In this document: in pieces, positions 1-44,817 of the stretch
How positions within the stretch are numbered: position 1 is the stretch's first letter
How the letters are laid out: the number at the start of each line of letters is the position of its first letter
DNA from: a virus
Taxonomy: Duplodnaviria; Heunggongvirae; Uroviricota; Caudoviricetes
Virus record (IMG/VR): IMGVR_UViG_2872164251_000001
Reading direction: 5' to 3' (one strand)
Length of the DNA stretch: 46,293 bases
Notes under the pieces: model-generated
What the model saw: only the letters and a program-made list of their open reading frames with translations
What the model was told of the DNA's origin: nothing
The model's database searches: none
Translations under genes and position numbers: made by a program

Positions 1-1039
1 TTACCTCGCATTTAAGTAAACCACGTTCTCCTCTTGTGCCGTATTTGTGCCATTGCGACTTATAATCGCATCGATTTTGCTTGCGTGCTCGGTGAGATGC
101 CCGGCTGAAAGGTGGGCGTATCTTTGAACCATTTCGAGAGTTTCCCATCCTCCCATCTCTTTAAGTGCAAGAAGAGAGACACCGGACTGAACCAGCCAGC
201 TTGCCCAGGTATGCCTCAGATCATGGAAGCGGAAGTTGCTAATGCCTGCCCGCTTTAACGCTCCCTTCCATGCCTTGTTGCTGTCGGTTCTCATCTTCCT
301 TACCGCTGCTGTTTTTGTTCCGTCGCTTCGGTAGGCAGGTTTGGTGTGGACAAATACCCATCTCTTATGGAGCCCCTGCTGTTTTCTTAATATCTGGCAT
401 GCGGTTTCGTTAAGAGGAACTCCGATCGCATTGCCAGCTTTTGTTTCATCAGGGTGCATCCATGCCATTTTCTTATCCAGATCGACCTGTGACCACTCAA
501 GGTCTGTAACGTTGGAACGGCGAAGGCCTGTCGTGATTGCAAACATGACCACAGGGAAGAAGTGAGGAGCAATTTCTGCAAACAGGCGCTTCGATTCCTC
601 CTCTGTAAGCCATCTGATGCGTCCATTCTTAACGCGTGGTGTTGATATTTTGGGTGCCCTGTCAAGCCATCCCCATTCAACAGCCATATTGAGAATGGCG
701 CGAAGTATTGCCAGATGCCTCGTCTTCGTTCCTTTGCTTGCAAGCTTTGGTTTATACTCCGGCACCGGATTGCCAAGTCGCAAACACCTGTCCCGGCTCA
801 TCTCCCAGTTCAGGCGATGGCGGCGGTTTTCCATCCCGTCTACCGCCTCCATTATTTTTTCTGTTGTTATGTCAGAGAGAATGGCTTCTCTGAAGTGCAA
901 CATCCAGAACGATATAATGCTCTTGTCATCATCAATGGACTTCTTATCCGATTTCTCACGCAGCCACCGTATGCAGGCTTCCTTGAATAGCTTTTTCGGT
1001 GATTCCCCGAGATTTTTTACTCTCCACGCTTTGAAGTGG

Positions 1040-2208
<1,169 letters not shown>

Positions 2209-2289
2209 TGGAGCACCTGTGTTGTTCTGAGGTGAGCATATCACCTCTGTTCAGGTGGCCAAATTCAGTGTGCCACTTCACTTCTGCTT

Positions 2290-2637
2290 TCAGACGATCG
2301 TGAAGTTCTTGCGCTTGCCTTTTGTCCGATGTTTCAAGAGAGCGTCTAACTCTTGATCCATCTGGCGCGACGAAATCGCAGTGCCACGTGCCACCGCGTA
2401 GTTTGATTGACATGCTTTAACCTCCTGCACATCAACCGCATTCACCGCGCTATTGTGTCTCACAGACTTAAGCGCCGCAATGCAGTCTGACTTGCAAATG
2501 CGATATGGGCTTTTAGGTTTATCTGGATTTATCTTTACGGCCTGAAGTCGTCCACTTCGTATCCACTGCGTGATAGTGCCTTTGTCTACCTTCAGATACG
2601 ACGCTGCCTCTTCACGAGTGAAGATTTCTTCTTCCAC
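2290..2637 (-). CDS. xis: Excisionase-like DNA-binding protein (AlpA/Xis-type HTH), GTG start
   Basis: MEEEIFTREEAASYLKVDKGTITQWIRSGRL HTH; directly upstream of and overlapping integrase start; GGAG 7 nt before GTG. Confidence 0.6.
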   Translation of the reverse strand: MEEEIFTREEAASYLKVDKGTITQWIRSGRLQAVKINPDKPKSPYRICKSDCIAALKSVRHNSAVNAVDVQEVKACQSNYAVARGTAISSRQMDQELDALLKHRTKGKRKNFTIV

Positions 2638-2727
2638 CTGGAATCTCCATTTATTGGATTGGTATTATTGCGGTAGGTCTGGATATCATTGAGCAATGAA
2701 CAGGCCTCATCGAGTATGAGGCTGTGG

Positions 2728-2975
2728 TTAGTCCTTGCGTAACTCGCTAATTCTTCTGTAAGTCTCTGGTGCTTTGTTTCCGTGTATCTTCATTTCAGAC
2801 TTCAACAGATCAACGAGGGAATCCCATTCGTTGAGGATGCCTTTGAATGCCGGAACGCGCTTTGCAACCTTGTCGAATGAATCTCTGATTTCTGGGATCT
2901 GCTCAACAAGTGCAACGCATCGTCTGAAATCGGCTGCGTCATGGGGAGCGCCGAAGTGATGACCATAGATATTCT
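2728..2975 (-). pseudogene. 3' fragment of an early-region gene, 5'-truncated at the IS629-like junction
   Basis: Frame open from IS boundary: ...NIYGHHFGAPHDAADFRRCVALVEQIPEIRDSFDKV...ELRKD stop; no start codon. Confidence 0.3.
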
Positions 2976-3017
2976 TGAACCGCCCCGGGTTTCCTGGAGA
3001 GTGTTTTATCTGTGAAC

Positions 3018-3908
3018 TCAGGCTGCCAGATCATCGTTTCCGATGGAAGCATAATAAGCTTTTTCTGCTTCTGCCGGAGGGATGTGGCCCAGCCTTTCCA
3101 GCAATCGTCGATTGTTATACCAGTCCACCCACGTTAGTGTGGCCAGTTCCACTTCTGCACGGTTTTTCCAGCTCTTACGGTGTATTACCTCCGCTTTGTA
3201 AAGACCATTGATGCTCTCCGCCATCGCGTTGTCATACGAGTCGCCTGTACTTCCTGTTGATGCCAGTAATCCGGCTTCCTTAAGCCGCTGTGTGTAGGCC
3301 AGCGATACATACTGAGAACCTTTATCACTGTGATGGACCGTGCCGGACGGTCGACGGGCCCATAACGCCTGCTCCAGTGCATCCAGCACGAATGTCGTTT
3401 CCATGGACGATGAGACCCGCCACCCCACGATGTATCCGGCAAACACATCAATGATGAACGCCACATAGACGAAGCCCCTCCATGTGCTGACGTAAGTAAA
3501 ATCAGCCACCCACAGCTGGTCAGGTCGTTCTGCCACGAACTGACGGTTTACGCGGTCGCCTGCGGCAACGGCTTTCCGGCTGATGGTCGTACGGACCTTT
3601 TTACCCCGGAGAACACCGGCAAGTCCCATAACCGCCATGAGACGTGCCACAGTGCATCTGGCCACTCTGATACCTTCCCGTAACAACTGACGCCAGACTT
3701 TACGCACACCGTATACCTTGTGATTTTCATCGTATACGCGCTGTATCTCTTTCTTCAGCCAGTCATCGCGCTGCGCACGGGCACTGCGTTTATCCGGATG
3801 ATGTCGCTGTTGCTGACAGTGGTAATACGTTGACGGGGCAATATGCAGTTCGCTGCATAGCGGTCCGACCCCGTACTGCTCACGCAGCTTATCCAGCAGT
3901 GGCATCAT
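3018..3908 (-). CDS. IS629-like OrfB transposase
   Basis: 296-aa IS3-family DDE transposase ORF overlapping OrfA. Confidence 0.8.
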
Positions 3909-4171
3909 TTTTTCCAGAGGCGGTCGAACTCCGCCTTCGCAAAATAAGCGGAAGCCTGGCGAAGGATATCGTTACTGCGGCGCAGTTCACGATTTTCACG
4001 CTCCAGCTCTTTCAGACGCTGACGTTCAGCGGTGGTGAGCCCTCCATCACCGCCCCCGGTATCCCGCTCATGCTGGCGAACCCAGACACGCAGAGTCTCC
4101 GGCGTACTTTCCAGAACCATACGGACTGCCCGTTGACGGACTTCGGGGGAAAAACGAGTATTTTTAGTCAT
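3905..4171 (-). CDS. IS629-like OrfA (shortened)
   Basis: [37 protein letters not shown]... Confidence 0.75.
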
Positions 4172-4225
4172 CCTGTTTACCTCCTTCTCAGGAAGTTTAG
4201 TCTCCAGGATTCCCGGGGCGGTTCA

Positions 4226-4645
4226 TCGTGCGAGGAAATGACAATGCTTTTAATTCAACCTGGATTTGGCCTTAGCATCAAAAAAGGGCACATGTTTGGC
4301 GAGAAAGAGTCTCAACGAAAAATGGTGTCGATACAGTTGCCATTTATCAGTATTTATTGGCTAAACAGGGAGGCAACAAATTATTGGTATACCTGCGCCA
4401 GAGCAGCATTTAACGACCCTGACTGGTTTGTGAAAAACCACCACGCAGTTCGTCAGGCAAAGAGAAAGGCCAATACGACATACATGAAGGCGTATCGAAA
4501 AGCATGGAAAGAACACCGCGATCGATACCAACAAGACATGGAAAAGCTTGAATCAGAAAACATGGAATTAAGACGAAAGCTCGGTGAAGCAAAACGAGAC
4601 ATCGATGCTTACAAGCGACTTTTTAATGGTGAAAGCCATGCTTAG
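4226..4645 (+). pseudogene. 5'-truncated nin-region ORF reading out of the IS629-like junction
   Basis: Frame open across IS boundary; C-terminal ...MKAYRKAWKEHRDRYQQDMEKLESENMELRRKLGEAKRDIDAYKRLFNGESHA. Confidence 0.3.
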
Positions 4646-4814
4646 CCCATCCCAATCCCTTCAATACCAGAAAGAAAGCGTCGAGCGAGCTTTAACGTGC
4701 GCTAATTGCGGTCAGAAGCTGCATGTGCTGGAAGTTCACGTGTGTGAGCACTGCTGCGCAGAACTGATGAGCGATCCGAATAGCTCAATGTACGAGGAAG
4801 AAGACGATGAATGA
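4638..4814 (+). CDS. ninF: NinF-like small Cys-rich protein
   Basis: ESVERALTCANCGQKLHVLEVHVCEHCCAELMSDPNSS matches lambda NinF as I recall it; start overlaps upstream stop. Confidence 0.55.
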   Translation: MLSPSQSLQYQKESVERALTCANCGQKLHVLEVHVCEHCCAELMSDPNSSMYEEEDDE

Positions 4815-5529
4815 GTTAATAAATGGCAATGCCATCAAAATGACAAGCATTGAAATCGCTGAGTTGGTTGGTAAGCGTCATGACAATGTGAAACGTACCA
4901 TCGAAACGCTGGCTAAAAATGGTGTTATCCGGCTTCCTCAAATTGAGGATTGTGGAAGAATCAATGGGTTAGGCTTAAATCAAAGTTTTTGTGTGTATGT
5001 GTTCGAAGGCGAACAAGGAAAGCGAGACAGTATTGTCGTTGTAGCCCAGTTGTCGCCGGAATTCACCGCTCGCCTTGTTGACCGCTGGCGAGAGCTTGAA
5101 GAAGCTGCGGTTAATATCCCCAAAACGCTACCGGAAGCGTTGCGCCTTGCTGCTGATCTTGCTGAGCAGAAAATGCAACTGGAAAACCAGCTCGCAATTG
5201 CCGCACCTAAAGTTGAGTTTGCCGATCGCGTTGGCGAGGCCAGCGGAATTTTGATTGGAAACTTTGCAAAGGTTGTTGGAATTGGTCCAAACAAACTGTT
5301 TGCGTGGATGCGCGATCACAAAATCCTTATTGCTTCAGGTTCCCGGCGCAATGTGCCAATGCAGGAATATATGGATCGCGGCTATTTCACAGTGAAAGAA
5401 ACAGCGGTCAACACAAATCACGGAATACAGATATCGTTCACCACAAAAATCACCGGGCGTGGTCAACAGTGGCTGACCAGAAAGCTGCTCGATAATGGAA
5501 TGCTGAAAGTAACAGGGGAGGCTGCTTAA
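4807..5529 (+). CDS. Rha-family regulatory protein with C-terminal ANT/KilAC antirepressor domain
   Basis: MTSIEIAELVGKRHDNVKRTIETL Rha-like N-terminus; ADRVGEASGILIGNFAKVVGIG ANT-like C-terminus. Confidence 0.7.
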   Translation: MNELINGNAIKMTSIEIAELVGKRHDNVKRTIETLAKNGVIRLPQIEDCGRINGLGLNQSFCVYVFEGEQGKRDSIVVVAQLSPEFTARLVDRWRELEEAAVNIPKTLPEALRLAADLAEQKMQLENQLAIAAPKVEFADRVGEASGILIGNFAKVVGIGPNKLFAWMRDHKILIASGSRRNVPMQEYMDRGYFTVKETAVNTNHGIQISFTTKITGRGQQWLTRKLLDNGMLKVTGEAA

Positions 5530-5819
5530 TGGCTAATCTACGCAAAGAAGCACGCGGCAGAGAATGCCAGGTACGTATTTACGGCGTATGCAATGGTAAT
5601 CCTGAAACTACAGTTCTGGCACATTACCGGATGGCTGGAATTTGCGGAACGGGAATGAAGCCTGACGACCTGATCGGCGCATGGGCTTGTAGCGCGTGTC
5701 ACGATGAAATCGACCGACGCACCCATAATCTCGACAACAAAGACGCCAGACTTTACCACCTCGAAGGCGTGATCAGGACGCAGGCGATACTGCTGAAGGA
5801 GGGGAAGATTAAGTCATGA
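5529..5819 (+). CDS. DUF1364 (YbcO-like) putative nuclease
   Basis: ARGRECQVRIYGVCNGNPETTVLAHYR...ACSACHDEIDRRTH; position upstream of rusA. Confidence 0.7.
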   Translation: MANLRKEARGRECQVRIYGVCNGNPETTVLAHYRMAGICGTGMKPDDLIGAWACSACHDEIDRRTHNLDNKDARLYHLEGVIRTQAILLKEGKIKS

Positions 5820-6178
5820 GCGAATATCAGTTTGTGCTTCCATACCCGCCGTCGGTGAACACCTACTGGCGAAGACGGGGAAACCAATACTACATCAGCG
5901 ATAAAGGCCAGAAATACCGAAAAGAAGTTCAGCAAATAATCCTCCAACTCAAGTTAGACATTTTCACCAAATCACGACTCCGCATCAAAGTCATCGCAGA
6001 CGTTCCAGACTCCCGCCGCCGCGACCTCGATAACATCCTGAAAGGTTTACTCGACTCCCTTATCCACGCCGGATTTGCGGAAGACGACGAGCAATTCGAT
6101 GACATTCGCGTAATTCGTGGTGTGAAAGTACCAGGCGGAAGGCTTGGAATAAAAATCACCGAACTGGAGAACGTATGA
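5816..6178 (+). CDS. rusA: RusA Holliday-junction resolvase
   Basis: LPYPPSVNTYWRRRG...RRRDLDNILKGLLDSL...GGRLGIKITE. Confidence 0.85.
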   Translation: MSEYQFVLPYPPSVNTYWRRRGNQYYISDKGQKYRKEVQQIILQLKLDIFTKSRLRIKVIADVPDSRRRDLDNILKGLLDSLIHAGFAEDDEQFDDIRVIRGVKVPGGRLGIKITELENV

Positions 6179-6363
6179 ACGCCACAATTCAAACGATACC
6201 AGAGCTTCTTATCCAGACACGAGGCAATCAGACCGAAGTGGCGAGGATGCTTTCCTGCGCAAGAGGAACAGTGCTCAAGTACAACCGAGACAGCAAAGGC
6301 GAGCGTCACGTAATAGTTAACGGCGTCCTGATGGTCAAACAGGGCAAGAGGGGAAGACGATGA
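6175..6363 (+). CDS. ninH: NinH-like protein
   Basis: IPELLIQTRGNQTEVARMLSCARGTVLKY...IVNGVLMV resembles lambda NinH. Confidence 0.65.
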   Translation: MNATIQTIPELLIQTRGNQTEVARMLSCARGTVLKYNRDSKGERHVIVNGVLMVKQGKRGRR

Positions 6364-6983
6364 GACTCGAAAGCGTAGCTAAATTTCATTCGCCAAAAAG
6401 CCCGATGATGAGCGACTCACCACGGGCCACGGCTTCTGACTCTCTTTCCGGTACTGATGTGATGGCTGCTATGGGGATGGCGCAATCACAAGCCGGATTC
6501 GGAATGGCTGCATTCTGTGGTAAGCACGAACTCAGCCAGAACGACAAACAAAAGGCTATCAACTATCTGATGCAATTTGCACACAAGGTATCGGGGAAAT
6601 ACCGTGGCGTTGCAAAGCTTGAAGGAAATACTAAGGCAAAGGTACTGCAAGTGCTCGCAACATTCGCTTATGCGGATTATTGCCGTAGTGCCGCGACGCC
6701 GGGCGCAAGATGCAGAGATTGCCACGGTACAGGCCGTGCGGTTGATATTGCCAAAACAGAGCTGTGGGGGAGAGTTGTTGAGAAAGAGTGTGGAAGATGC
6801 AAAGGCGTCGGCTATTCAAGGATGCCAGCAAGCGCCGCATATCGCGCTGTAACGATGCTAATCCCCAACCTTACCCAACCCACATGGTCACGCACTGTTA
6901 AGCCGCTGTATGACGCTCTGGTGGTGCAATGCCACAAGGAAGAGTCAATCGCAGACAATATTTTGAATGCGGTCACACGTTAG
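6360..6983 (+). CDS. Q: Late antiterminator Q, lambda type
   Basis: 207 aa, MRLESVAKFHSPKSPMMSDSPRATASDS... with Cys4 zinc motif CRDCHGTG...CGRCKG; followed by lambda-like PR'. Confidence 0.85.
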   Translation: MRLESVAKFHSPKSPMMSDSPRATASDSLSGTDVMAAMGMAQSQAGFGMAAFCGKHELSQNDKQKAINYLMQFAHKVSGKYRGVAKLEGNTKAKVLQVLATFAYADYCRSAATPGARCRDCHGTGRAVDIAKTELWGRVVEKECGRCKGVGYSRMPASAAYRAVTMLIPNLTQPTWSRTVKPLYDALVVQCHKEESIADNILNAVTR

Positions 6984-7025
6984 CAGCATGATTGCCACGG
7001 ATGGCAACATATTAACGGCATGATA

Positions 7026-7054
7026 TTGACTTATTGAATAAAGTTGGGTAAATT
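7026..7054 (+). promoter_or_regulatory. PR' late promoter (-35 TTGACT, 17-bp spacer, -10 TAAATT) with qut region
   Basis: TTGACTtattgaataaagttgggTAAATT immediately downstream of Q. Confidence 0.6.
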
Positions 7055-7060
7055 TGACCC

Positions 7061-7253
7061 AACGATGGGTTAATTCGCTCGTTGTGGTAGTGAGATGAAA
7101 AGAGGCGGCGCTTACTACCGATTCCGCCTAGTTGGTCACTTCGACGTATCGTCTGGAACTCCAACCATCGCAGGCTGAGAGGTCTGCAAAATGCAATCCC
7201 GAAACAGTTCGCAGGTAATAGTTAGAGCCTGCATAACGGTTTCGGGATTTTTT
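7061..7253 (+). ncRNA. Short terminated late leader transcript (lambda 6S-RNA-like)
   Basis: From predicted PR' start to tR' hairpin; about 190 nt; ends inferred not measured. Confidence 0.5.
7196..7253 (+). terminator. tR' rho-independent terminator
   Basis: 10-bp arms ATCCCGAAAC / GTTTCGGGAT followed by TTTTTT. Confidence 0.6.
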
Positions 7254-7694
7254 ATATCTGCACAACAGGTAAGAGCATTGAGCCGATAATCGTGAAGAGT
7301 CGGCGAGCCTGGTTAGCCAGTGCTCTTTCCGTTGTGGTGAATGCACAGGCTGATGTGTAAGGGCAAGAATCTTTCGCTGGATTCGGTGTGGCCACGTAGC
7401 CAGCTGTAGGCAGTTGCAGCAAACCGGAGATCAGCACCGGTCGCCACAATCCAAACTGAGCCGTAGCCACTGACTATCCTGAATTCATCAGTGATAGTTA
7501 CGCTGCGGCCTTCTACACATGATCTTCGTGAAAGTGGGCGGCATGAGGTTGCGCTAACAACCTAATGCCGTTTTGCCCGTGCATATCGGTCACGAACAAA
7601 TCTGATTACTAAACACAGTAGCCTGGATTTGTTCTATCAGTAATCGACCTTATTCCTAATTAAATAGAGCAAATCCCCTTATTGGGGGTAAGAC

Positions 7695-8018
7695 ATGAAG
7701 ATGCCAGAAAAACATGACCTGTTAGCCGCCATTCTCGCGGCAAAGGAACAAGGCATCGGGGCAATCCTTGCGTTTGCAATGGCGTACCTTCGCGGCAGAT
7801 ATAATGGCGGTGCGTTTACAAAAACAGTAATCGACGCAACGATGTGCGCCATCATCGCCTGGTTCATTCGTGACCTTCTCGACTTCGCCGGACTAAGTAG
7901 CAATCTCGCTTATATAACGAGCGTGTTCATCGGCTACATCGGTACTGACTCGATTGGTTCGCTTATCAAACGCTTCGCTGCTAAAAAAGCCGGAGTAGAA
8001 GATGGTGGAAATCAATAA
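7695..8018 (+). CDS. S: Holin S, lambda type (dual-start MKM)
   Basis: [43 protein letters not shown]... Confidence 0.9.
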
Positions 8019-8478
8019 TCAACGTAAGGCGTTCCTCGATATGCTGGCGTGGTCAGAGGGAACTGATAACGGACGTCAGAAAACCAGAAATCATGGTTAT
8101 GACGTCATTGTAGGCGGAGAGCTATTTACTGATTACTCCGATCATCCTCGCAAACTTGTCACACTAAACCCAAAACTAAAATCAACAGCCGCCGGACGTT
8201 ATCAGCTTCTTTCCCGTTGGTGGGATGCTTACCGTAAGCAGCTTGGCCTGAAAGACTTCTCTCCGAAAAGCCAGGACGCTGTGGCACTGCAACAGATTAA
8301 AGAACGTGGCGCTTTACCGATGATTGATCGCGGTGATATTCGTCAGGCAATTGACCGTTGCAGCAATATCTGGGCTTCACTTCCGGGCGCTGGTTATGGT
8401 CAGTTCGAGCATAAGGCTGACAGCCTGATTGCAAAATTCAAAGAAGCAGGCGGAACGGTCAGAGAGATTGATGTATGA
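8002..8478 (+). CDS. R: Endolysin R (lytic transglycosylase)
   Basis: [52 protein letters not shown]. Confidence 0.9.
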
Positions 8479-8942
8479 GCAGAGTCACCGCGATTATCTC
8501 CGCTCTGGTTATCTGCATCATCGTCTGCCTGTCATGGGCGGTTAATCATTACCGTGATAACGCCATGACCTACAAAGAGCAGCGAGATAAAAAAGTCAGT
8601 GAGCTGAAGCAGGCGACCGCCACCATTACTGACATGCAGCAACGCCAGCGTGCTGCTGATGCACTCGATGCTAAATACACGAAGGAGTTAGCTGATGCGA
8701 AAGCTGAAAATGATGCTCTTCGGCGCAAGCTTGATAATGGTGGCAGGGTGCTCGTCAAAGGAAAATGCCCTGTGCCATCCTCAGCCGAAACCTCCAGCGC
8801 CTCCGGCATGGGCAATGATGCCACCGTCGAACTCTCTCCAGTTGCTGGACGAAACGTTCTCGGTATCCGGGACGGAATTATCCGCGACCAAACAGCACTG
8901 AGAACGCTTCAGGAATACATCAGGACGCAATGCCTTCGATGA
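8475..8942 (+). CDS. Rz: Rz i-spanin
   Basis: N-terminal [32 protein letters not shown] then coiled coil; central region differs from lambda Rz as I recall it. Confidence 0.8.
8695..8901 (+). CDS. Rz1: Rz1 o-spanin lipoprotein embedded in Rz (+1 frame)
   Basis: [19 protein letters not shown] lipobox then Pro-rich segment. Confidence 0.7.
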
Positions 8943-9116
8943 TAGCGATAATTTTACTCATCATCCTTCACATCTGGCTCTGTAGACAGGGGGGTGATCA
9001 CTTCTGGAGTAAATCCAGATTAAACATCTCATTGCTGATGCTTGATATTGAGCATCTGGCGCGCGGTAAGGGGCTGCGTTGAGATAAGAGCCAGTCATCA
9101 CAAACACCAGGATTTA

Positions 9117-9140
9117 GCCTCGCATTCGCGGGGCTTTTTT
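9117..9140 (+). terminator. Putative rho-independent terminator after lysis cassette
   Basis: CCTCGC att GCGGGG stem (one G-U pair) followed by CTTTTTT. Confidence 0.4.
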
Positions 9141-9287
9141 ATATCTGCAACAAACGCGCTTCACACGCGCGACTTATGAACACAGAGCCTTTCAGGATGA
9201 CCCTTGAGGATGCCGGTTTGGTAATCGGTGCCTTTCTGTGGGCCGGAATCCTGTGTGACAAGGTTCATCACTAAAAGGTAATCACTG

Positions 9288-9793
9288 ATGAAGTACCCAA
9301 CAGTTATTGTCAATGGTGTGTCCGTTCGTGTTGATGAGGATGGACGCTACAACTTAAACGATCTCCATGCAGCAGCAGTTGCAAATGGAGAGGCTACAGA
9401 GCAACAGCGCCCAAGCCAGTTTTTGCGTAGCGCGCAGATAAAACGCTTCATAAAAGCACTTTGGAACAAATTCAACCACTTAAAATAATCAAAGGTGGTG
9501 CAGAACCAGGTGTGTGGGGTGTTGAACTTCTGGCAATCAGATATGCAGCATGGATTAAGCCGGAATTTGAAATCGAAGTTTATGAAGTTTTCAAAACGGT
9601 TGTCCGTCTCGGCGTTGGCGCAATGTCCCGTCTGAATAGAATCGATCACATCATCAATACTGAAACCAAAGCGATAAGCCAGTGCGCAAGCCAAATGGCT
9701 AAGTGGGGCGTTGGTGGGCGAAAAAGATTGCTTCATGTTGCACGTGAGAGAGCGGCAAATGAAGTGCAAATGTATTTGCCCGGAATGGTGTGA
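9288..9793 (+). pseudogene. KilA-N domain gene, frameshifted near 9455-9465
   Basis: 9288-9488 (VIVNGVSVRVDEDGRYNLNDLH) and 9461-9793 (GVWGVELLAIRYAAWIKPEFEIEVYEVF) are consecutive parts of one KilA-N domain in different frames; paralog of 20981-21778. Confidence 0.6.
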
Positions 9794-10234
9794 TTTCGCA
9801 GGTTAATCCAGTTTTTGCATTACGGCAGTACCGCGAAACAACCCAAGCCAGTAAGTGGGGAAATAACACTGGCAGCCACTGAAAGATGAACCTCCAGCCT
9901 TATGGCAAAAAAGATTCTTTGTGGTGGCGGACTGATGGAAAGACATCGGTTATTGCAGAGGCCATTCAATGAGTGGTCTCGATAATGGCTTATACCCTAC
10001 ACGGGATAACTTAACTGATATCCCTTTTAACGGATAAACGGAGCCAACAATGGCAGAGATTATTCCCATGACTGAAGAACAGAAATTCCAGTTAGAGATT
10101 TACAAACTGGTTATGAACCAGAACGCAGCCGCAGAAGAAGCATTTCAGTTCATTGGCACTGATGAAGTGGCACACTGAATTTGGCCACCTGAACAGAGGT
10201 GATATGCTCACCTCAGAACAACACAGGTGCTCCA

Positions 10235-11403
<1,169 letters not shown>

Positions 11404-11411
11404 CCACTTCA

Positions 11412-11501
11412 TTTCTTGCCTCAAATGGCAGTACGTTAACTATTCAGTCAAATGGTGCGGCGTTTACTGCCACAACCATCAAGATAATCGCGGAGCAGTG
11501 A
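11412..11501 (+). pseudogene. 3' end of a gene truncated by IS911 (possibly a P22-type tail-needle gene)
   Basis: Frame open from IS junction: FLASNGSTLTIQSNGAAFTATTIKIIAEQ stop, stop overlaps next ATG. Confidence 0.2.
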
Positions 11502-11956
11502 TGATTCAGTTCAAACCAACGCGAAACATCGACCTGATCGAAGCAGTAGGAAATCACACTGACATTATCGCCGGGAGCAACAACGGCGATGGATACGACT
11601 ACAAGCCTGAATGCCGTTACTTTGAGGTTAACGTGCACGGGCAGTTCGGCGGAATTGTTTACTATCAGGAGATTCAGCCGCTAACCTTTGATTGCCACGC
11701 CATGTACCTGCCAGAGATTCGTGGATTCAGCAAGGAAATCGGGCTGGCGTTCTGGCGATACATTCTGACTAACACCACCGTTCAGTGCGTCACATCGTTC
11801 GCTGCGCGCAAATTCCGCCACGGTCAGATGTACTGCGCAATGATTGGCCTTAAGCGTGTAGGAACCATCAAGAAATACTTCAAAGGCGTGGATGACGTGA
11901 CGTTTTACAGCGCCACACGCGAAGAACTAATCGACTTCCTGAATCACGGGAGATAG
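11501..11956 (+). CDS. Hypothetical virion protein, P22 gp14-like by position
   Basis: 152-aa ORF with GGAG RBS, immediately upstream of the gp7-like gene; assignment by gene order only. Confidence 0.35.
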   Translation: MIQFKPTRNIDLIEAVGNHTDIIAGSNNGDGYDYKPECRYFEVNVHGQFGGIVYYQEIQPLTFDCHAMYLPEIRGFSKEIGLAFWRYILTNTTVQCVTSFAARKFRHGQMYCAMIGLKRVGTIKKYFKGVDDVTFYSATREELIDFLNHGR

Positions 11957-11958
11957 CC

Positions 11959-12651
11959 ATGTTATATGCATTTAAGCTGGGCAGAAAACTGCGCGGCGAG
12001 GAACCTTATTGCCCTGAAAAAGGCGGGAAAGGTGGCAGCTCTGATAAAAGCGCAAAGTATGCAGCAGAAGCTCAGAAGTATGCCGCAGACCTGCAAAATC
12101 AGCAGTGGCAGACGATCATGAAAAACCTTGCTCCGTTCACGCCTCTTGCGGAGCAGTATGTTAACCAGCTTCAGAACCTTTCCAGTTTAGAAGGTCAGGG
12201 GCAGGCACTTAATCAGTATTACAACTCTCAGCAGTATAAAGACCTTGCAGGTCAGGCTCGTTACCAGAGTCTTGCTGCTGCGGAGGCGACGGGTGGACTT
12301 GGTTCGACAGCCACAAGCAATCAACTGGCTACGATCGCGCCGACACTCGGTCAGTCTTGGTTATCAAACCAGATGAGCAATTACAACAATCTGGCAAACG
12401 TTGGGCTTGGTGCGCTGCAAGGTCAGGCAAACGCCGGGCAGACATACGCCAACAACATGAGCAGCATTGCACAGCAAAGCGCAGCTCTTGCCGCTGCTAA
12501 TGCCAACAAACCATCAAGTCTTCAGACAGCAATTAGTGGCGGAACGTCTGGTGCGATTGCCGGTGCAGGTCTTGCCAGCCTTTTGGGAACATCAACACCT
12601 TGGGGCGCTGGCATTGGTGCTGGTATCGGATTGCTTGGCTCGTTGTTTTAA
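11959..12651 (+). CDS. P22/Sf6 gp7-like ejection (injection) protein
   Basis: MLYAFKLGRKLRGEEPYCPEKGGKGGSSDKSAKYAAEAQKYAADLQNQQ..., Gln/Asn/Ala-rich, C-terminal glycine-zipper GAIAGAGLASLLG...GAGIGAGIGLLGSLF; recognised from memory of P22 gp7. Confidence 0.55.
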   Translation: MLYAFKLGRKLRGEEPYCPEKGGKGGSSDKSAKYAAEAQKYAADLQNQQWQTIMKNLAPFTPLAEQYVNQLQNLSSLEGQGQALNQYYNSQQYKDLAGQARYQSLAAAEATGGLGSTATSNQLATIAPTLGQSWLSNQMSNYNNLANVGLGALQGQANAGQTYANNMSSIAQQSAALAAANANKPSSLQTAISGGTSGAIAGAGLASLLGTSTPWGAGIGAGIGLLGSLF

Positions 12652-12660
12652 GGGGTAATC

Positions 12661-12714
12661 ATGGCTACTTGGCAAGGATCAAATGGCGGATTATTGGCTG
12701 GTATCGGCGGCGTC
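12661..12714 (+). pseudogene. 5' fragment of next ejection-protein gene (gp20-like) truncated by IS1
   Basis: MATWQGSNGGLLAGIGGV then the IS1 end. Confidence 0.35.
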
Positions 12715-20252: not shown

Positions 20253-20575
20253 CGACGTTAACTCAATGCCAGCAGCAGGTGCTGGATATGCTGATTTCTT
20301 ATCAGAAAGAACGTGGCTTCCCGCCAACCAATCAGGAGGTGGCAACCATGCTGGGATACCGTTCGGTGAATGCAGCGGTGGAGCATCTTCGCGCACTGGA
20401 GAAAAAAGGCGTCATCACGATAAAGCGTGGCGTGGCCCGGGGGATAACGCTTCATACCGCGGTGAAGGACGACGACAGCGAGGCGGTCGGGATTATCCGC
20501 GCACTGCTTGCCGGTGAGGAAAACGCAAGGCTGCGTGCAACCCACTGGTTACATGAGAGGGACCTGAAAGTATGA
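20249..20575 (+). CDS. LexA N-terminal DNA-binding-domain protein lacking the peptidase domain
   Basis: MTTLTQCQQQVLDMLISYQKERGFPPTNQEVATMLGYRSVNAAVEHLRALEKKGVITIKRGVARGITL parallels the LexA winged-HTH; ATGA overlaps on both sides. Confidence 0.6.
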   Translation: MTTLTQCQQQVLDMLISYQKERGFPPTNQEVATMLGYRSVNAAVEHLRALEKKGVITIKRGVARGITLHTAVKDDDSEAVGIIRALLAGEENARLRATHWLHERDLKV

Positions 20576-20961
20576 AGCTGATCCTGCCTTTTCCGCCCAG
20601 CGTGAACACGTACTGGCGACACCCCAACAAAGGGGCGTTTGCTGGTAAGAGCCTGATAAGCGCGGCGGGGCGAAAATTCCAGAGCGCGGCGTGCGCAGCA
20701 ATAGTTGAGCAGTTACGTCGTCTGCCGAAACCAACGTCGGCACCTGCTTCAGTGGAGATCGTGTTGTTTCCTCCGGATAACCGGATCCGCGATCTGGACA
20801 ACTATAACAAGGCGCTGTTTGACGCCCTGACCCACGCGGGTGTGTGGGAAGACGACAGTCAGGTGAAAAGAATGCTGGTGGAGTGGGGGCCGGTTATCCC
20901 GGAAGGGAAGGTCGAGATCACTATCAATAAGTACGAGAAAACGGCGGGTGCAGCCGCCTGA
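20572..20961 (+). CDS. rusA: RusA Holliday-junction resolvase (second copy)
   Basis: LPFPPSVNTYWRH...NRIRDLDNYNKALFDALT. Confidence 0.8.
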   Translation: MKLILPFPPSVNTYWRHPNKGAFAGKSLISAAGRKFQSAACAAIVEQLRRLPKPTSAPASVEIVLFPPDNRIRDLDNYNKALFDALTHAGVWEDDSQVKRMLVEWGPVIPEGKVEITINKYEKTAGAAA

Positions 20962-20980
20962 TTAAGAGGAGAAACGAAGT

Positions 20981-21778
20981 ATGAATAATCTGATGGTCAT
21001 TGATGGTATTGAAGTTCGTCGTGATGCTTATGGGCGTTACAGCCTGAACGATCTGCACAGGGCTGCCGGTTCTCAGGATAAGCATAAGCCTGCATTCTGG
21101 CTCCGCAATGAGCAAACCGAACGTTTAATAAGCGAGTTGCAGATTTGCAACTCGGTCAATATAGAGCCAGTTAACGTTAGTCGTGGCGGAAATAACCAGG
21201 GGACGTATGTCTGCAAAGAACTGGTGTATGCCTATGCAATGTGGATCAGCCCGTCATTCCATCTGAAGGTGATCCGTACTTTCGATATGGTAACCAGCGC
21301 ACCGGAAAAATTATCCGGGCAGGCTGCTGACAAGATGCAGGCTGGCGTGATTCTGCTGGACTTTATGCGGCGGGAGTTAAACCTGTCTAACTCATCTGTG
21401 CTTGGGGCCTGTCAGAAACTCCAGGAGGCTGTTGGCTTACCGAATCTGGCACCACGCTATGCCATTGATGCTCCTGCTGACGCGCCTGATGGCTCAAGTC
21501 GCCCTACGCTGTCGCTGAGTGCACTGCTGAAACAGTATGGTATCCGCCTGACAGCTAATCAGGCATATCACCAGATGGCGAAGCTGGGGATCGTTGAACA
21601 ACGCGAACGATACAGCCGTACCGCGATTAACAACATCAAAAAATTCTGGTCGCTGACGGCGAAAGGCTGCATGTTCGGCAAGAACATTACCAGTCCTGCA
21701 AATCCGCGCGAGACGCAGCCGCATTTCTTCGAATCCCGATTCCCTGAGCTGTTAAAGCTGCTCGATACCGTTCATTGA
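20981..21778 (+). CDS. KilA-N domain antirepressor-like protein
   Basis: MVIDGIEVRRDAYGRYSLNDLH...GTYVCKELVYAYAMWISPSFHLKVIRTF. Confidence 0.7.
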   Translation: MNNLMVIDGIEVRRDAYGRYSLNDLHRAAGSQDKHKPAFWLRNEQTERLISELQICNSVNIEPVNVSRGGNNQGTYVCKELVYAYAMWISPSFHLKVIRTFDMVTSAPEKLSGQAADKMQAGVILLDFMRRELNLSNSSVLGACQKLQEAVGLPNLAPRYAIDAPADAPDGSSRPTLSLSALLKQYGIRLTANQAYHQMAKLGIVEQRERYSRTAINNIKKFWSLTAKGCMFGKNITSPANPRETQPHFFESRFPELLKLLDTVH

Positions 21779-22789: not shown

Positions 22790-23158
22790 TTGATGCGTGA
22801 TATTCAGATGGTTCTTGAGCGTTGGGGAGCATGGGCGGCGAGTGATAGTTCAGGCGTTGACTATTCACCTATAGCTGCTGGGTTTAAGGGACTTCTTCCC
22901 TATACCAGCAAGAAACGCTTGGCTTGTTCGGATAGTGATGCATTAATTATTGAAGGTTGTCTTGCTCGTCTAAAGCAAAAAAGACCTTATGAGCATTCGC
23001 TTCTTGTGGCACATTATTTATACAGAATATCCAAGCGTAAGATTGCAAAGGCGCGTGGAAAGGATGAGAAATTGATACGTATAGAAATACAGCTAGCCGA
23101 AGGATTTATTGATGGCTGCCTTTCCATGCTAGATCTAACATTAGATTTGGACGTTTAA
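22790..23158 (+). CDS. Late antiterminator Q (QuuD/phi82-like small Q)
   Basis: MRDIQMVLERWGAWAA... N-terminus as in DLP12 QuuD from memory. Confidence 0.7.
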   Translation: MMRDIQMVLERWGAWAASDSSGVDYSPIAAGFKGLLPYTSKKRLACSDSDALIIEGCLARLKQKRPYEHSLLVAHYLYRISKRKIAKARGKDEKLIRIEIQLAEGFIDGCLSMLDLTLDLDV

Positions 23159-23186: not shown

Positions 23187-24518
23187 TTACTGGATGAATG
23201 ACATTTGATTAATATATTTTATCAATAACTCTCTGGGTGTAGTACTCCAAAAATTTAGGTGTTCATAATCAGTATAAACAGTGGTGAATTTTTTAAGTTC
23301 TTCATCACTTTTAGGGGCAAATCGCTCATTAAGAGTAATACTGTCTTTAATTATTCCGAAGAATACAATAGATATTTCAGGAATTTGCGATCTTCTCTCA
23401 TAAGAATAAGGTATTTCTTTTATGTTAAGCAGATCTGCTAAATGAGATATAGATTCTGCGGTAATTTCTTGTTTTAGTTTTTCCTTGTCACCAAAGCAAT
23501 GTATGAAGACAGCTACGACAAAGATCTTATTTATTAAAGGATCACTGCTTTTGTACTCATCGTCGTTTAATAGTTGAAAAATGTTAAGATTGCGTGAAAA
23601 AGTTTGTGTTTCACGTAAGGATAAGTTGGTTCGTTGAATTAAATCACGGATAAATCTACCAGATAACCTATTAATTTCATTTAATGATTTTGTCTTGTCT
23701 ACAAGGTAATTCCAATATATAACAGATGTTTTACATACGACGTGACCATTTATTAAACATGTGTCTGGAAGCGTGATGGTATATTTTATAAACTTGTCAA
23801 GATACTTTTGTGAGTTAATACTATAACCATAAATATGATTTATCGATGCTTTTAATTGTTCTGTGTTTGTAACTAAAATAAAAAAGACATTATTGATGTC
23901 AAAAATGTGTTTTATTGTTTCAATGACATTTGTTGAAAAACTCGGCTTACATCGGTCTAATTCATCAATTATAATTACTATCTTTTGACTTTCTGAAATG
24001 CTTTCGATGCAAGATTTAAGTGAATTTATGTTTTTCTCTGATTCCATATGGTCTTCAAGCAAATTTTCAATAGTCCCATCTATTGCTGCATTGCTTGCTT
24101 TCTTCATCGCATCTTGGAATTCTTCGGAAACTTCACTAGCCTCCTGTCGTAAAAACCAACCTGCACCAGCTTTTAGTACCGTTTTTAAACCAAAGCGAAT
24201 TGCAGGAAGAGATCTCTTAATGAAGTGTTGTTTTTCTTCCTCAGGTAAAATGCTGGCAATTGCAGAGGTTATGAGAAGTAATGGAGATTCTGCATGATCC
24301 CCTTTAAAGGCATCAATATAAACAACTTTAGATTCAGTTTCTTGCTCAATAATGAGATTTTTCAGTTTGATACTAAATTCTGTTTTCCCTGTTCCCCATG
24401 CGCCGTCTATTACCAGTGGTGAAATGTCTGCCTCTGGTTTTAGCAACTTGATGATATTTTCAGCGATGTTTCTGCGTTGGAACTCGTCACGTTCAGTGAA
24501 AGATAGTGTATCTAACAT
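23187..24518 (-). CDS. KAP-family P-loop NTPase (PifA-like), AT-rich moron
   Basis: Walker A GAWGTGKT, Walker B IIIDELDRC; 443 aa; much lower GC than flanks by eye; opposite strand to late operon. Confidence 0.75.
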   Translation of the reverse strand: MLDTLSFTERDEFQRRNIAENIIKLLKPEADISPLVIDGAWGTGKTEFSIKLKNLIIEQETESKVVYIDAFKGDHAESPLLLITSAIASILPEEEKQHFIKRSLPAIRFGLKTVLKAGAGWFLRQEASEVSEEFQDAMKKASNAAIDGTIENLLEDHMESEKNINSLKSCIESISESQKIVIIIDELDRCKPSFSTNVIETIKHIFDINNVFFILVTNTEQLKASINHIYGYSINSQKYLDKFIKYTITLPDTCLINGHVVCKTSVIYWNYLVDKTKSLNEINRLSGRFIRDLIQRTNLSLRETQTFSRNLNIFQLLNDDEYKSSDPLINKIFVVAVFIHCFGDKEKLKQEITAESISHLADLLNIKEIPYSYERRSQIPEISIVFFGIIKDSITLNERFAPKSDEELKKFTTVYTDYEHLNFWSTTPRELLIKYINQMSFIQ

Positions 24519-24814: not shown

Positions 24815-25141
24815 ATGCCTCATAACCCAAATACCTGGTTGGAGTTGGTCCAGAGCTGGTGGCGTGGAGACACACCGCTGGGCGCAGTGATTATGTCGAT
24901 TGTTATGGCTGGCTTGCGCATTGCATATTTTGGCGGTGGTGGGGGCTGGAAACGAAAAACGCTCGAGATTTTGCTCTGTGGTGCTCTGACGCTGACTTTT
25001 GCATCCGCTCTTGAGTATGTCGGATGGCCTAAATCTCTTTCTGTTGCCATTGGTGGCGGCGTTGGGCTAATCGGGGTCGATGCTATTCGTGGGGCTGCAA
25101 TGAGAGTAATCGGTAATAAGTTTGGTGGCTCTAAGGAGTAA
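24815..25141 (+). CDS. Putative holin (three predicted TM segments)
   Basis: Small hydrophobic protein immediately upstream of endolysin. Confidence 0.55.
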   Translation: MPHNPNTWLELVQSWWRGDTPLGAVIMSIVMAGLRIAYFGGGGGWKRKTLEILLCGALTLTFASALEYVGWPKSLSVAIGGGVGLIGVDAIRGAAMRVIGNKFGGSKE

Positions 25142-25144: not shown

Positions 25145-25621
25145 ATGCAGGTACTAAATTCCCAGCGTAAAGCTTTCCTCGATATGGTGGCATGGTCAGA
25201 AGGAACGGATAACGGGCGACAACCGACACGTAATCACGGTTATGATGTTATTGTTGGCGGCGAACTGTTTACTGATTACTCTGATCACCCTCGCAAACTT
25301 GTCACGCTAAACCCCAAACTCAAATCAACAGCCGCCGGACGTTATCAGCTTCTTTCACGCTGGTGGGATGCCTACCGTAAGCAGCTTGCTCTGAAAGACT
25401 TCTCCCCCAAAAGCCAGGATGCTGTGGCACTGCAACAGATTAAAGAGCGTGGCGCTTTACCGATGATTGATCGCGGTGATATTCGTCAGGCTATCGACCG
25501 TTGCAGCAATATCTGGGCGTCGTTACCCGGTGCAGGTTATGGTCAGTATGAACATAAAATCGGTGATTTGATTGCCCGGTTTAAAGAGGCTGGTGGGGTG
25601 GTAAATGAAGCTGAGCTATAA
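25145..25621 (+). CDS. Endolysin (lambda R-like lytic transglycosylase), second copy
   Basis: About 90 percent identical by eye to the 8002-8478 R protein. Confidence 0.9.
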   Translation: MQVLNSQRKAFLDMVAWSEGTDNGRQPTRNHGYDVIVGGELFTDYSDHPRKLVTLNPKLKSTAAGRYQLLSRWWDAYRKQLALKDFSPKSQDAVALQQIKERGALPMIDRGDIRQAIDRCSNIWASLPGAGYGQYEHKIGDLIARFKEAGGVVNEAEL

Positions 25622-25997
25622 GCTGCTTATCGTTGGTTTCTTCGTTACTGTCATTGGTTCTTTCATCTGGTCGGCCAACCACTACTACAGCAAATATCAG
25701 TACGAAAAGAAACGTGCTGATGAGGCTGTACGAAATGCTGAATCAGCAACTGCCATTACCAATAACGTCCTGCAATCACTACAAATCGTCAATACAGTTC
25801 TGGAGGCTAACCAGCATGCAAAACAGCAGATCGCACTGGAGTCACAGAGAGCCCGGGAAGATATCAAAGTGGCTGTTGCGGATGATGATTGTGCTTCACG
25901 CCCTGTGCCTGATGTCGCTGCTGACCGGTTGCGGAAGTACGCGGACAGTATACGTGCAGGTTCCAACGATGCCGTTACCGACGAACCTGCTCGCTGA
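25605..25997 (+). CDS. Rz-like i-spanin
   Basis: N-terminal TM then coiled-coil-like segment, overlaps endolysin end. Confidence 0.7.
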   Translation: MKLSYKLLIVGFFVTVIGSFIWSANHYYSKYQYEKKRADEAVRNAESATAITNNVLQSLQIVNTVLEANQHAKQQIALESQRAREDIKVAVADDDCASRPVPDVAADRLRKYADSIRAGSNDAVTDEPAR

Positions 25998-26160
25998 AAC
26001 TCCACAGCCAGTTATACCCAATCCTCTGACTTATGGGGATAGTCTTAGTTTGAATGTAAGTCTGCTATCAGCACTGGGGCTATGTAACCGTGATAAGTCT
26101 GATCTTCGTAGGTTAGGAGAGCAAAAGTACAATCTGCATTTGAATAATAATATTCATTAG
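25882..26160 (+). CDS. Rz1-like o-spanin lipoprotein (overlapping architecture)
   Basis: MMIVLHALCLMSLLTGC lipobox, Pro-rich; starts inside Rz and extends past it. Confidence 0.5.
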   Translation: MMIVLHALCLMSLLTGCGSTRTVYVQVPTMPLPTNLLAETPQPVIPNPLTYGDSLSLNVSLLSALGLCNRDKSDLRRLGEQKYNLHLNNNIH

Positions 26161-44166: not shown

Positions 44167-44817
44167 ATGCATCGTATAGACACGAAAACCGCGCAGAAGG
44201 ATAAGTTCGGCGCGGGTAAGAACGGTTTTACCCGTGGTAACCCCCAGACCGGCACACCTGCCACCGATCTGGATGATGACTACTTTGACATGTTGCAGGA
44301 GGAGCTTTGCAGCGTGGTGGAGGCATCCGGTGCCAGCCTGGAGAAGGGGCGGCATGACCAGCTGCTTACCGCGCTTCGTGCGCTGCTGTTAAGCCGCAAG
44401 AATCCGTTTGGCGATATCAAATCGGATGGCACTGTGCAAACGGCTCTCGAAAACCTTGGTTTGGGAGAAGCAGCTAAAAGGAATGTAGGTACAGGGGCGA
44501 ATCAGATACCTGATATGAGCCTGTTCGCGTCAATTAATACCGTAACGGCTGCTGCGCAAAAATTTCCGTCTGGATTAATTTTACAGTGCGGTCAGTTGAA
44601 TGGTGCCCCGAATGTATCTTCAACATACGGGATGAGGTTCCCGATGACGTTCTCAAGAGTCATTGCTGTCGTAGTTACATTGAACGTTACTGGCGCGGCT
44701 GGGCAGCCGACTGTATCGGCGACAAGTGTCCAGAACACTGGATTTAATATTACTGTGTCGCCCGGTTCAGGATACGGTTCATCTGCTGATGCGTATTACA
44801 TTGCAATGGGATATTAA
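44167..44817 (+). CDS. Tail fibre protein
   Basis: 216 aa immediately before tail fibre assembly gene. Confidence 0.55.

Follow-up and report, generated by a model that had tools for sequence, protein, structure and literature searches.

A lambda/HK620 mosaic late-regulation and lysis module, probably orphaned in a P22-like prophage remnant beside proA of Shigella flexneri 3b

Introduction

A lambda-type late-regulation and lysis block that shares a stretch of DNA with a second prophage raises the question of what it belongs to and whether anything about it is unusual. We addressed this for a block in the window, by which we mean the whole 46,293-nt stretch of viral DNA that was analysed (IMG/VR record IMGVR_UViG_2872164251_000001). 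An original prediction had described a Q-PR'-6S-S-R block with divergent spanin genes, duplicated in function by the second prophage, and had proposed that repeats shared by the two prophages could drive deletion. The window was 100% identical to S. flexneri 3b SFL1520 (CP032513), and the locus adjoins proA (proB-proA flank). Positions 6350-9100 are very probably the late-regulation and lysis module of a HK620/Kapi1/Sf6-like (Lederbergvirus, P22-like) prophage beside proA in this strain, now an orphaned lambda/HK620 mosaic. The block is ordinary and already described, and its spanin mosaic is a known allele.

Results

The lambda-type block was found as predicted, with all five ORFs in place (Table 1). 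Q, S, and R were identical to the lambda proteins at 207/207, 106/107 (99.1%; the change is R105G), and 157/158 (99.4%) amino acids, respectively, and the Q gene matched that of lambda at 610 of 624 nt. A zinc-binding CxxC...CxxC core was read in Q as the motifs CRDC and CGRC. Homology to lambda starts at 6350, just before Q.

Table 1. Features of the late block, its surroundings, and the second prophage (window coordinates)
Feature	Position	Strand	Evidence or remark
IS911 copy inside int	1032..2280	-	3-bp duplication CTT; named from SfII annotation 'IS911 ORF A/B', 99.6% identical
rusA of remnant	5816..6178	+	PF05866
Q, lambda-type late-gene antiterminator	6360..6983	+	PF03589 6e-58; PDB 7UBM 2.6e-139; full-length 7UBM/4MO1 match
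PR' late promoter	7026..7054	+	-35 TTGACT 7026-7031; 17-nt spacer with Q-binding element; -10 TAAATT 7049-7054
6S transcript region	7061..7254	+	+1 with AACGAT pause/qut element 7061-7066, to tR' hairpin 7195-7248 and U-tract 7248-7253
Replaced segment 3' of tR'	7337..7449	+	113 bp versus 78 bp in lambda
S holin/antiholin, dual start	7695..8018	+	Met1-Lys2-Met3, S105 start 7701; PF05106, TIGR01594 (2.6e-37), phrog_126
R endolysin, lambda lytic transglycosylase type	8002..8478	+	PDB 1AM7 7.9e-106 over 1-158; phrog_90
Endolysin direct repeat, copy 1	8020..8414	+	87.6% over 395 bp
Rz i-spanin, 155 aa	8475..8942	+	PF03245 1.9e-29; phrog_13 1.5e-74
Rz1 o-spanin, 68 aa	8695..8901	+	PF06085 3.8e-21; phrog_3198
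Lambda/HK620-PS119 crossover interval	8709..8719	+	last lambda-type site 8708; run of >100 SE1-type sites from 8720
50-aa hydrophobic ORF overlapping Rz end	8930..9082	+	phrog_11822; annotated in Kapi1 and E. coli PU-1; after Rz in 7 of 10 contexts
KilA-N pseudogene	9288..9793	+	frameshift from 25-bp deletion
IS911 copy, inverted relative to first	10163..11411	+	without target duplication; truncates DUF2560, abuts Sf6-like gp26'/gp14/gp7
rusA (20572-20961) and KilA-N (20981-21778) of SfII-like prophage	20572..21778	+	
Q of SfII-like prophage	22790..23158	+	PF06530; other family than lambda Q, no blastp match to remnant's Q
Holin of SfII-like prophage	24815..25141	+	lambda holin family, 24% aa to S; SfII 'class I holin'
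Endolysin R2 of SfII-like prophage	25145..25621	+	phrog_90; 436/477 nt to SfII R
Endolysin direct repeat, copy 2	25163..25557	+	partner of 8020-8414
i-Spanin of SfII-like prophage	25605..25997	+	PF10828, phrog_214; SfII 'i-spanin'
o-Spanin, LysC type, overlapped not embedded	25882..26160	+	PF23793, phrog_456; lipobox LTGC; start inferred from Met before lipobox

Relative to lambda, PR' carries two substitutions, at 7043 (about -18, in the region of the Q-binding element) and at 7059 (-2), both of which occur in the viable phage Kapi1. The 6S region differs from lambda 44587-44780 at one position (7176). Its tR' was predicted to fold into a terminal hairpin (z = -3.2) with U6 after it, the hairpin and U6 being the same as in lambda and lying ~194 nt downstream. 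Over PR'-qut-6S-tR' there were 4 mismatches in 353 nt. Together with a Q of the lambda family, the cognate PR' with its Q-binding and pause elements and tR' suggest lambda-type Q antitermination. At gathering thresholds, the sole Rfam match was the ALIL frameshift pseudoknot of an IS3-family element; the 6S region gave none.

Thus far the claim that Q, the PR'/terminator region, S, and R are lambda-like held for the genes, the promoter, and tR', but it did not extend to the Q-S spacer, part of which has been replaced (7337-7449). The same patch is present in HK629, JEP4, and E212. In Kapi1, tRNA-Asn and tRNA-Thr occupy the equivalent site; the window's patch has no tRNA, and neither has any other part of the window, which we scanned for tRNAs because of the Kapi1 genes.

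The 130 nt upstream of S and its first 26 nt are those of lambda, consistent with a dual-start class I holin. The predicted catalytic Glu19 of R was read within WSEGTD, as expected for a lambda R endolysin. Neither this endolysin nor that of the second prophage was matched by a Pfam or NCBIfam model at 1e-3, although PHROGs and PDB gave matches. An identical S protein was found with three Rz allele classes (145, 153, and 155 aa) and with two Q families.

The spanin genes depart from lambda (61.5% amino acid identity for Rz, 38.6% for Rz1), and the mosaic joint proposed within them proved to be sharp. We mapped it at sites where lambda and SE1 differ, which placed the crossover at 8709-8719, corresponding to Rz codon ~80 and Rz1 codon ~7, 14-25 nt into Rz1. 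The divergence had been described as central, but in Rz it begins at codon ~83 and continues to the stop, with a milder patch at codons 31-62; Rz1 codons ~9-68 are of a non-lambda allele. Rz residues 1-30 equal those of lambda, as expected of an i-spanin, and sliding identities suggest a lambda-like transmembrane domain and first coiled coil followed by an HK620/PS119-type linker, second coiled coil, and C-terminus. Rz1 lies wholly within the Rz gene in the +1 frame, spanning 0.47-0.91 of that gene's length, and has a lipobox VAGC (Cys19), a periplasmic Cys27, a PPAPP motif, and 8 Pro in 49 mature residues. The domain map of lambda Rz assigns homotypic disulfides to Rz C99 and C152 and to Rz1 C29 (PMC5295617); Rz Cys98 and Cys153 match the former pair, and Rz1 Cys27 stands for C29.

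Downstream of the joint, the 3' half of Rz was 96-99.5% identical to Kapi1, HK620, PS119, SE1, and others. For the 220-bp Rz 3'/Rz1 segment, identity was 98.2% to HK620, 96.4% to mEp460, 99.1% to SPN9CC, and 96.7% to SE1; Rz1 matched HK620 and Kapi1 at 98-99.5% of nucleotides, and the Rz 3' half matched Kapi1 at 99.5%. A 2018 spanin census (Kongari et al.; PMC6139136) places HK620 Rz in the lambda i-spanin family and recognises a separate HK620 o-spanin family. That family comprises HK620, SE1, ST104, mEp460, and SPN9CC, as distinct from lambda and HK97/P22; the identities above, set against 38.6% to lambda Rz1, assign Rz1 to it. Judged by its sequence, the part of Rz/Rz1 beyond the joint is the known HK620/PS119/SE1 allele, already described in the HK620 GenBank record and in the census. 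The original prediction had been silent both on this allele being catalogued (in HK620, Kapi1, and many others) and on the gutted state of the first prophage described below.

Among known systems, HK620 (AF335538) has the same gene order (Q, pR', qut, S, R, Rz). Its record lists Q, pR', qut, S, and R as lambda-like and has 'Rz similar to PS119', and a KilA-family gene (KilA-like hkbK) likewise follows its lysis genes. It differs in a Q-S spacer of 1021 bp versus 711 bp here, in Rz codons ~35-60, in carrying another KilA allele, and in being a complete phage, whereas the window holds a remnant. Kapi1 (vB_EcoP_Kapi1, MT813197, Lederbergvirus) is colinear at ~97% over 4638-9142 (ninF-ant-ybcO-rusA-ninH-Q-S-R-Rz-50-aa ORF), but it carries its two tRNA genes in place of the 113-bp patch and has other accessory genes downstream. 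Lambda shares the promoter, pause element, tR', dual-start region, and embedded +1 Rz1; unlike lambda, the window has ninH rather than ninI upstream and no bor downstream, carries the other allele at Rz codons 83-155, and loses homology at ~8720.

The first "prophage" is an IS-riddled remnant in which int is disrupted, immunity and replication genes are absent, and almost no virion genes are left. Between 2638 and 13483 we found no repressor, N, O/P, terminase, portal, or coat gene; only fragments of gp26', gp14, gp7, and gp20' occur there. Lambda homology is confined to 6350 to ~8720 (the blastn match ends at 8722), a segment flanked by P22-like nin genes and Sf6-like ejection genes. As the element is gutted, its lysis genes are intact but orphaned. 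IS911 splits int, an IS3-family element takes the place of the xis-nin interval, a deletion at the second IS911 has removed the small terminase through the needle genes, and IS1 links the remnant to the SfII-like prophage. An exact search of GTDB representative genomes gave no match to the DUF2560/IS911 junction.

Two other readings of the architecture were considered. The left-end int/xis is not the SfII-like prophage's own with P22-like DNA inserted into it: int is 67% identical to SfII int, int-xis is 98% identical to that of HK542, and SfII homology starts from 13483. A composite transposon made by the inverted IS911 pair is not supported either, as only the left copy has a 3-bp duplication.

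A separate holin, endolysin, and P2-type overlapped spanin are encoded by the SfII-like prophage, and lysis function is therefore duplicated, as had been predicted. This second cassette is independent of the first, with a different Q family, a distant lambda-family holin, and an 89% identical endolysin. It resembles the SfII/SfV cassette in having S (class I holin), R, and overlapped RZ/RZ1 followed by an HNH endonuclease and terminase, and its R gene is 91% identical at the nucleotide level. It differs from SfII in the cargo between Q and holin, a low-GC KAP NTPase here and two other ORFs in SfII, and in lacking int/xis and the left arm.

An endolysin gene does lie at 25145-25621, but the two genes are not near-identical: pairwise alignment gave 390/477 nt (81.8%) and 89.2% at the amino acid level, with the longest exact runs at 44, 35, 26, and 23 bp. 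Homologues of rusA and KilA-N are also present at 20572-21778. Their protein identities between the prophages are low (38% for rusA, 33-40% for KilA-N), the first KilA-N is a pseudogene, and at the DNA level neither pair matched significantly, which rules them out as DNA repeats. Self-comparison of the whole window yielded just two repeats, the endolysin stretch and the inverted IS911 pair.

Discussion

Given its near-identity with lambda, PR' would be constitutively active, and RNA polymerase would pause at the AACGAT element. Without Q, transcription should stop at tR' and yield a 6S RNA of ~194 nt; with Q bound between -35 and -10, polymerase would read through into S, R, and Rz/Rz1. The dual start would then supply holin S105 and antiholin S107, R would act as a transglycosylase, and the Rz/Rz1 spanin would fuse the inner and outer membranes. 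In the remnant, normal early transcription has presumably been lost along with the early genes while the lysis genes stayed intact, and the likely state is 6S RNA only, with no lysis. Q would be silent because no immunity/N/PR region lies upstream; it is possible, though, that Q is transcribed by read-through from an upstream IS or from a cryptic promoter.

Compared with lambda, the block can be read as a mosaic with three joints: at 6350 before Q, at the 7337-7449 cassette swap (a tRNA site in other phages), and at 8709-8719 inside Rz. The last appears to fall where coiled coil 1 of Rz ends, within a short conserved stretch. Because it lies there and only just inside Rz1, the Rz linker, coiled coil 2, and C-terminus have been swapped together with essentially all of Rz1. 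By analogy with lambda genetics, this position would keep a co-adapted Rz/Rz1 pair together. The locus thereby illustrates the textbook point that phage mosaic joints lie where function is preserved, the distal part of Rz moving with Rz1.

Beyond correct annotation, the significance of the locus is small. Exact coordinates are now available for PR', 6S/tR', and the embedded Rz1, none of which is called by the genome's automatic annotation, and the lambda/HK620 spanin crossover has been placed. At this locus, beside proA, a gutted P22-like remnant and an SfII-like prophage stand in tandem, with IS elements joining them.

It is unlikely that, as was proposed, the prophages are prone to recombinational deletion through the endolysin, rusA, and KilA-N pairs acting as direct repeats ~17 kb apart. 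One direct repeat is real, that of the endolysin genes, and its 44- and 35-bp exact runs exceed the ~25 bp that is reportedly the minimal processing segment for RecA recombination (a figure said to go back to Shen and Huang in 1986). However, the other two pairs are dissimilar as DNA, and in cells proficient in mismatch repair a divergence of 12%, as between the endolysin copies, is expected to make RecA recombination orders of magnitude rarer. Nor was there a sign of conversion in situ: 20 of the 21 differences between R1 (the remnant's endolysin gene) and lambda are shared with unrelated prophages or absent from R2, only that at 8202 being specific to R2, and other R1-type alleles show identities of 388-398 to R2, a range that includes R1 itself (390/477). 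Deletion recombinants, that is, a first-type S or hybrid R beside the second i-spanin, did not occur among the contexts returned, a limited sample in which the second i-spanin had its own holin upstream in 24/24 contigs read and a PF03245 Rz was kept wherever the first Rz and S occurred. All visible rearrangements of the locus are at IS911, IS3-family, and IS1 elements, and junction differences between strains are likewise at IS elements. A single 395-bp repeat of 87.6% identity is unlikely to be a notable driver of deletion; loss by this route is weakly possible, and the proposed hazard is minor relative to the Shigella IS load.

It is less probable still that the intact Q-PR'-S-R-Rz/Rz1 block has been kept for host use, either through premature lysis triggered by a superinfecting lambda-type Q or through co-opted lysis-dependent release. 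The block has no broken ORF, unlike the neighbouring int, KilA-N, and DUF2560, and the exact Rz protein occurs in 219 blocks of a public collection, the contexts sampled being the same remnant. Recent clonal descent of S. flexneri explains this conservation: loci that we compared over 6-19 kb were 99.96-100% identical, which leaves no time for decay. We found no regulator that would tie the block to a host signal, and one draft assembly (L007) has broken ybcO/ninH/R calls, possibly sequencing errors. A related and even more doubtful idea is that the orphaned block acts as a trans-activatable lysis switch, with an invader's lambda-type Q reading through the resident tR' and adding a second dose of holin, endolysin, and spanin. 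If so, an invader would face early lysis and a smaller burst, and the block would stay silent on induction of the SfII-like prophage, whose Q is of a different family.

Near-identity of Q, S, and R to lambda might suggest that the block is part of a complete, inducible lambda-like prophage. The gene content of the window refutes this, with its confined lambda homology, P22-like and Sf6-like flanks, split int, and missing repressor, N, O/P, terminase, portal, and coat genes.

Lambda-type lysis block and its spacer

Genes were located by an ORF scan and compared with lambda (NC_001416). Q was identical to lambda Q in all 207 residues (610/624 nt), and S and R each carried a single residue change (R105G and G62A, respectively). 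Family searches were concordant with the block genes (PF03589, PF05106/TIGR01594, phrog_90, PF03245, and PF06085), and PDB matches were obtained for Q (7UBM/4MO1) and R (1AM7).

Features of the lysis block and the first prophage element
Feature	Position	Strand or direction	Remark
int	1-1031		98% identical to HK542/mEp213-type phage integrases
IS911, left copy	1032-2280	-	splits int; 3-bp CTT target duplication
xis	2290-2637		after left IS911
IS3-family element	~2950-4260	-	Rfam ALIL frameshift pseudoknot at 3834-3950, 120 bits
ninF, ant, ybcO, rusA, ninH	4638-6363		phage DNA again; colinear with Kapi1, 97%
Q	6360-6983	same as S, R, Rz, Rz1	ORF scan
PR' -35 TTGACT	7026-7031		alignment with lambda and Kapi1
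PR' -10 TAAATT	7049-7054		alignment with lambda and Kapi1
Start site and -10-like pause element AACGAT	7061-7066		alignment with lambda and Kapi1
6S region	7061-7254		counterpart, lambda 44587-44780
tR' hairpin and U-tract	7195-7253		alignment with lambda and Kapi1
S	7695-8018	same as rest of block	ORF scan
R	8002-8478	same as rest of block	ORF scan
Rz	8475-8942	same as rest of block	ORF scan
Rz1	8695-8901	embedded, +1 frame of Rz	ORF scan
KilA-N pseudogene	9288-9793	+	frameshift from 25-bp deletion
IS911, right copy	10163-11411	+	inverted relative to left copy; cuts DUF2560 gene at codon 42
Sf6-like gp26'/gp14/gp7/gp20'	11412-12714		followed by IS1

The spacer elements were mapped on a three-way alignment of the window, lambda, and Kapi1. 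The promoter, pause, and terminator elements were named partly from the HK620 GenBank features 'pR'' and 'qut' and partly from lambda biology. The start site, together with the tR' hairpin and U-tract, sets the extent of the 6S region. Only 4 mismatches to lambda occurred in the 353 nt of 6984-7336, two of them in the promoter (7043, about -18, and 7059, -2) and both also present in the viable phage Kapi1. A consensus promoter scan recovered the same PR', and folding predicted a long terminal hairpin followed by U6.

The original prediction described the block from Q to R as lambda-like, which holds for the near-identical Q, promoter, tR', S, and R but not for the entire spacer: just 3' of tR', 113 bp (7337-7449) stand in for 78 bp of lambda. 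This patch recurs in HK629, JEP4, and E212. Kapi1 has tRNA-Asn and tRNA-Thr at the site, whereas a tRNA scan of the window detected none. From 7450 to the S start, 13 mismatches to lambda were found, and the last 130 nt before S, including the ribosome-binding and dual-start region, were unchanged. An inverted repeat lies upstream of S at 7540-7570 (lambda arms GGCAGGAGGT...ACCTCCTGCC; window arms GGCATGAGGT...ACCTAATGCC). Both arms are altered relative to lambda, with one change compensatory and one disrupting a pair; we know of no function assigned to this repeat.

Mosaic joint within the spanin genes

Lambda homology detected by blastn spanned 6350-8722, with none beyond. At sites distinguishing lambda from the PS119-type phage SE1, the window was lambda-type through 8708, and >100 informative sites in a row, starting at 8720 and reaching the stop codon, were SE1-type. 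The predicted mosaic joint is therefore a crossover within 8709-8719 (Rz codons ~79-82; Rz1 codons ~5-9), in a short segment that is conserved among lambda, Kapi1, HK620, and SE1. On the lambda Rz domain map, this position is the end of coiled-coil 1 (PMC5295617); thus, the swapped unit comprises the Rz linker, coiled-coil 2, the C-terminus, and virtually all of Rz1. Identity to lambda was 61.5% for Rz and 38.6% for Rz1. Divergence had been placed in the central regions of both genes, which is only partly right because the main divergence extends to the 3' end; a milder divergent patch at Rz codons 31-62 was closer to Kapi1 than to lambda or HK620. Functional hallmarks are present in Rz1 (lipobox VAGC with Cys19, periplasmic Cys27, and a PPAPP motif) and Rz (Cys98 and Cys153); the lambda counterparts are Rz1 C20/C29, a P5 stretch, and Rz C99/C152 (PMC5295617).

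This spanin allele is already known. In the 220 bp 3' of the joint, identity was 99.5% with Kapi1, 98.2% with HK620, and 95-99% with PS119, SE1, SPN9CC, mEp460, and others, and 82 phage records covered ≥80% of the segment. The HK620 GenBank record lists lambda-like Q, pR', qut, S, and R, an 'Rz similar to PS119', and then a KilA-like gene. A spanin census assigned the Rz of HK620 to the lambda i-spanin family and defined a separate 'HK620' o-spanin family with members SE1, ST104, mEp460, and SPN9CC (PMC6139136). An S protein identical to that of the window was listed in >52,000 blocks of a public collection. In ten sampled contexts, S was adjoined by an R of the same length, Q was either lambda-type or 21/82-type, and Rz was 145 or 155 aa long (153 aa in lambda). 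The Rz alleles of these three lengths share their first ~115 nt and diverge afterwards; thus, module joints inside Rz are recurrent and ordinary. A 50-aa hydrophobic ORF (8930-9082, +; phrog_11822, function unknown) overlaps the final Rz codons. Of 10 unrelated prophage contexts, 7 had this ORF next after Rz, and the annotations of Kapi1 and E. coli PU-1 include it.

A gutted remnant beside proA

The window was 100% identical across 18.9 kb to CP032513.1, from Shigella flexneri serotype 3b strain SFL1520 (PMC6424224). Immediately upstream are proB and proA, and the attP of HK542/mEp213-type phages is annotated as thrW-like. The mapped gene content, which lacks a repressor, N, and any replication, terminase, portal, or coat gene, identifies the first element as a gutted remnant. 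Its IS3-family element stands in for everything between xis and the nin region. Rz is followed by the 50-aa ORF, the KilA-N pseudogene, the DUF2560 gene, and the right IS911; compared with an intact 531-bp E. coli homologue, the KilA-N deletion lies between AAAAGCACT repeats. The inverted IS911 copies (1249 bp, 98.96% identical) flank the entire nin-Q-lysis segment, and recombination between them would invert 2281-10162. The right copy lacks a target duplication and marks the site of a deletion running from the truncated DUF2560 gene as far as the gp26 end. An SfII/SfV-like myovirus prophage, without its own int/xis, begins at 13483.

In lambda, transcription from PR normally extends to Q through N antitermination. 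Given the missing repressor and N, we infer that Q is unexpressed in the remnant, that PR' would give 6S RNA only, and that the lysis genes would be silent.

A second lysis cassette

The SfII-like prophage encodes a PF06530-family Q to which the Q of the block shows no detectable similarity, a lambda-family holin (24% identical to S), an endolysin (R2, 25145-25621; 89.2% aa identity to R), a phrog_214/DUF2570 i-spanin, and a LysC-type o-spanin that starts within the i-spanin gene and ends past it, an overlapped architecture. The same lysis genes are annotated in SfII. At the annotation level, this full set supports the proposed functional duplication of lysis, through largely non-homologous parts.

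Between Q and the holin, on the opposite strand, lies a gene for a 443-aa KAP-family P-loop NTPase (23187-24518, -; 31% GC versus ~53% in the flanks), where SfII has two other ORFs. It looks like a moron and is possibly defence-related. Adjoining the cassette on its 3' side, before an HNH endonuclease and the small terminase, a 184-aa ORF (26238-26792, +) without a Pfam match occupies a 37.5% GC stretch; some other assemblies call only 110 aa.

Repeats and recombination between the prophages

Only two repeats emerged from a self-comparison of the whole window: the IS911 copies in inverted orientation and 8020-8414/25163-25557 (395 bp, 87.6%) within the endolysin genes. Over the entire gene, R and R2 matched at 390/477 nt (81.8%; longest exact runs 44, 35, 26, and 23 bp), so they are not the near-identical copies originally proposed. 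Nor are rusA (38% protein identity) and KilA-N (33-40%) direct repeats as had been claimed: neither pair showed significant DNA similarity, and they are homologues derived from different phage lineages. Overall, the original annotation was largely correct and the similarity overstated; the block and its surroundings all fit described systems (HK620, Kapi1, lambda, and SfII).

Past exchange between R and R2 was rejected. Of 21 sites at which R differs from lambda, 20 were either common to Kapi1, HK620, and unrelated E. coli prophages or not in R2, leaving only 8202 shared with R2 alone, and R was no closer to R2 than were the Kapi1, HK620, and E. coli prophage alleles. Among the sampled contigs carrying the second i-spanin, the Rz of the block, or S, none had a recombinant gene context. 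The proposed repeat-driven deletion is a weak claim: the single 395-bp repeat offers a mechanism for it, but such events should be rare.

The S. flexneri assembly AFGW01000011 and the window part company precisely at the IS1 junction (12714/12715; position 14240 of the assembly), where the Sf6-like gp20 gene of the assembly runs on past the window's IS1 point. The inter-prophage junction therefore varies between strains. The rearrangements visible at this locus are driven by IS elements.
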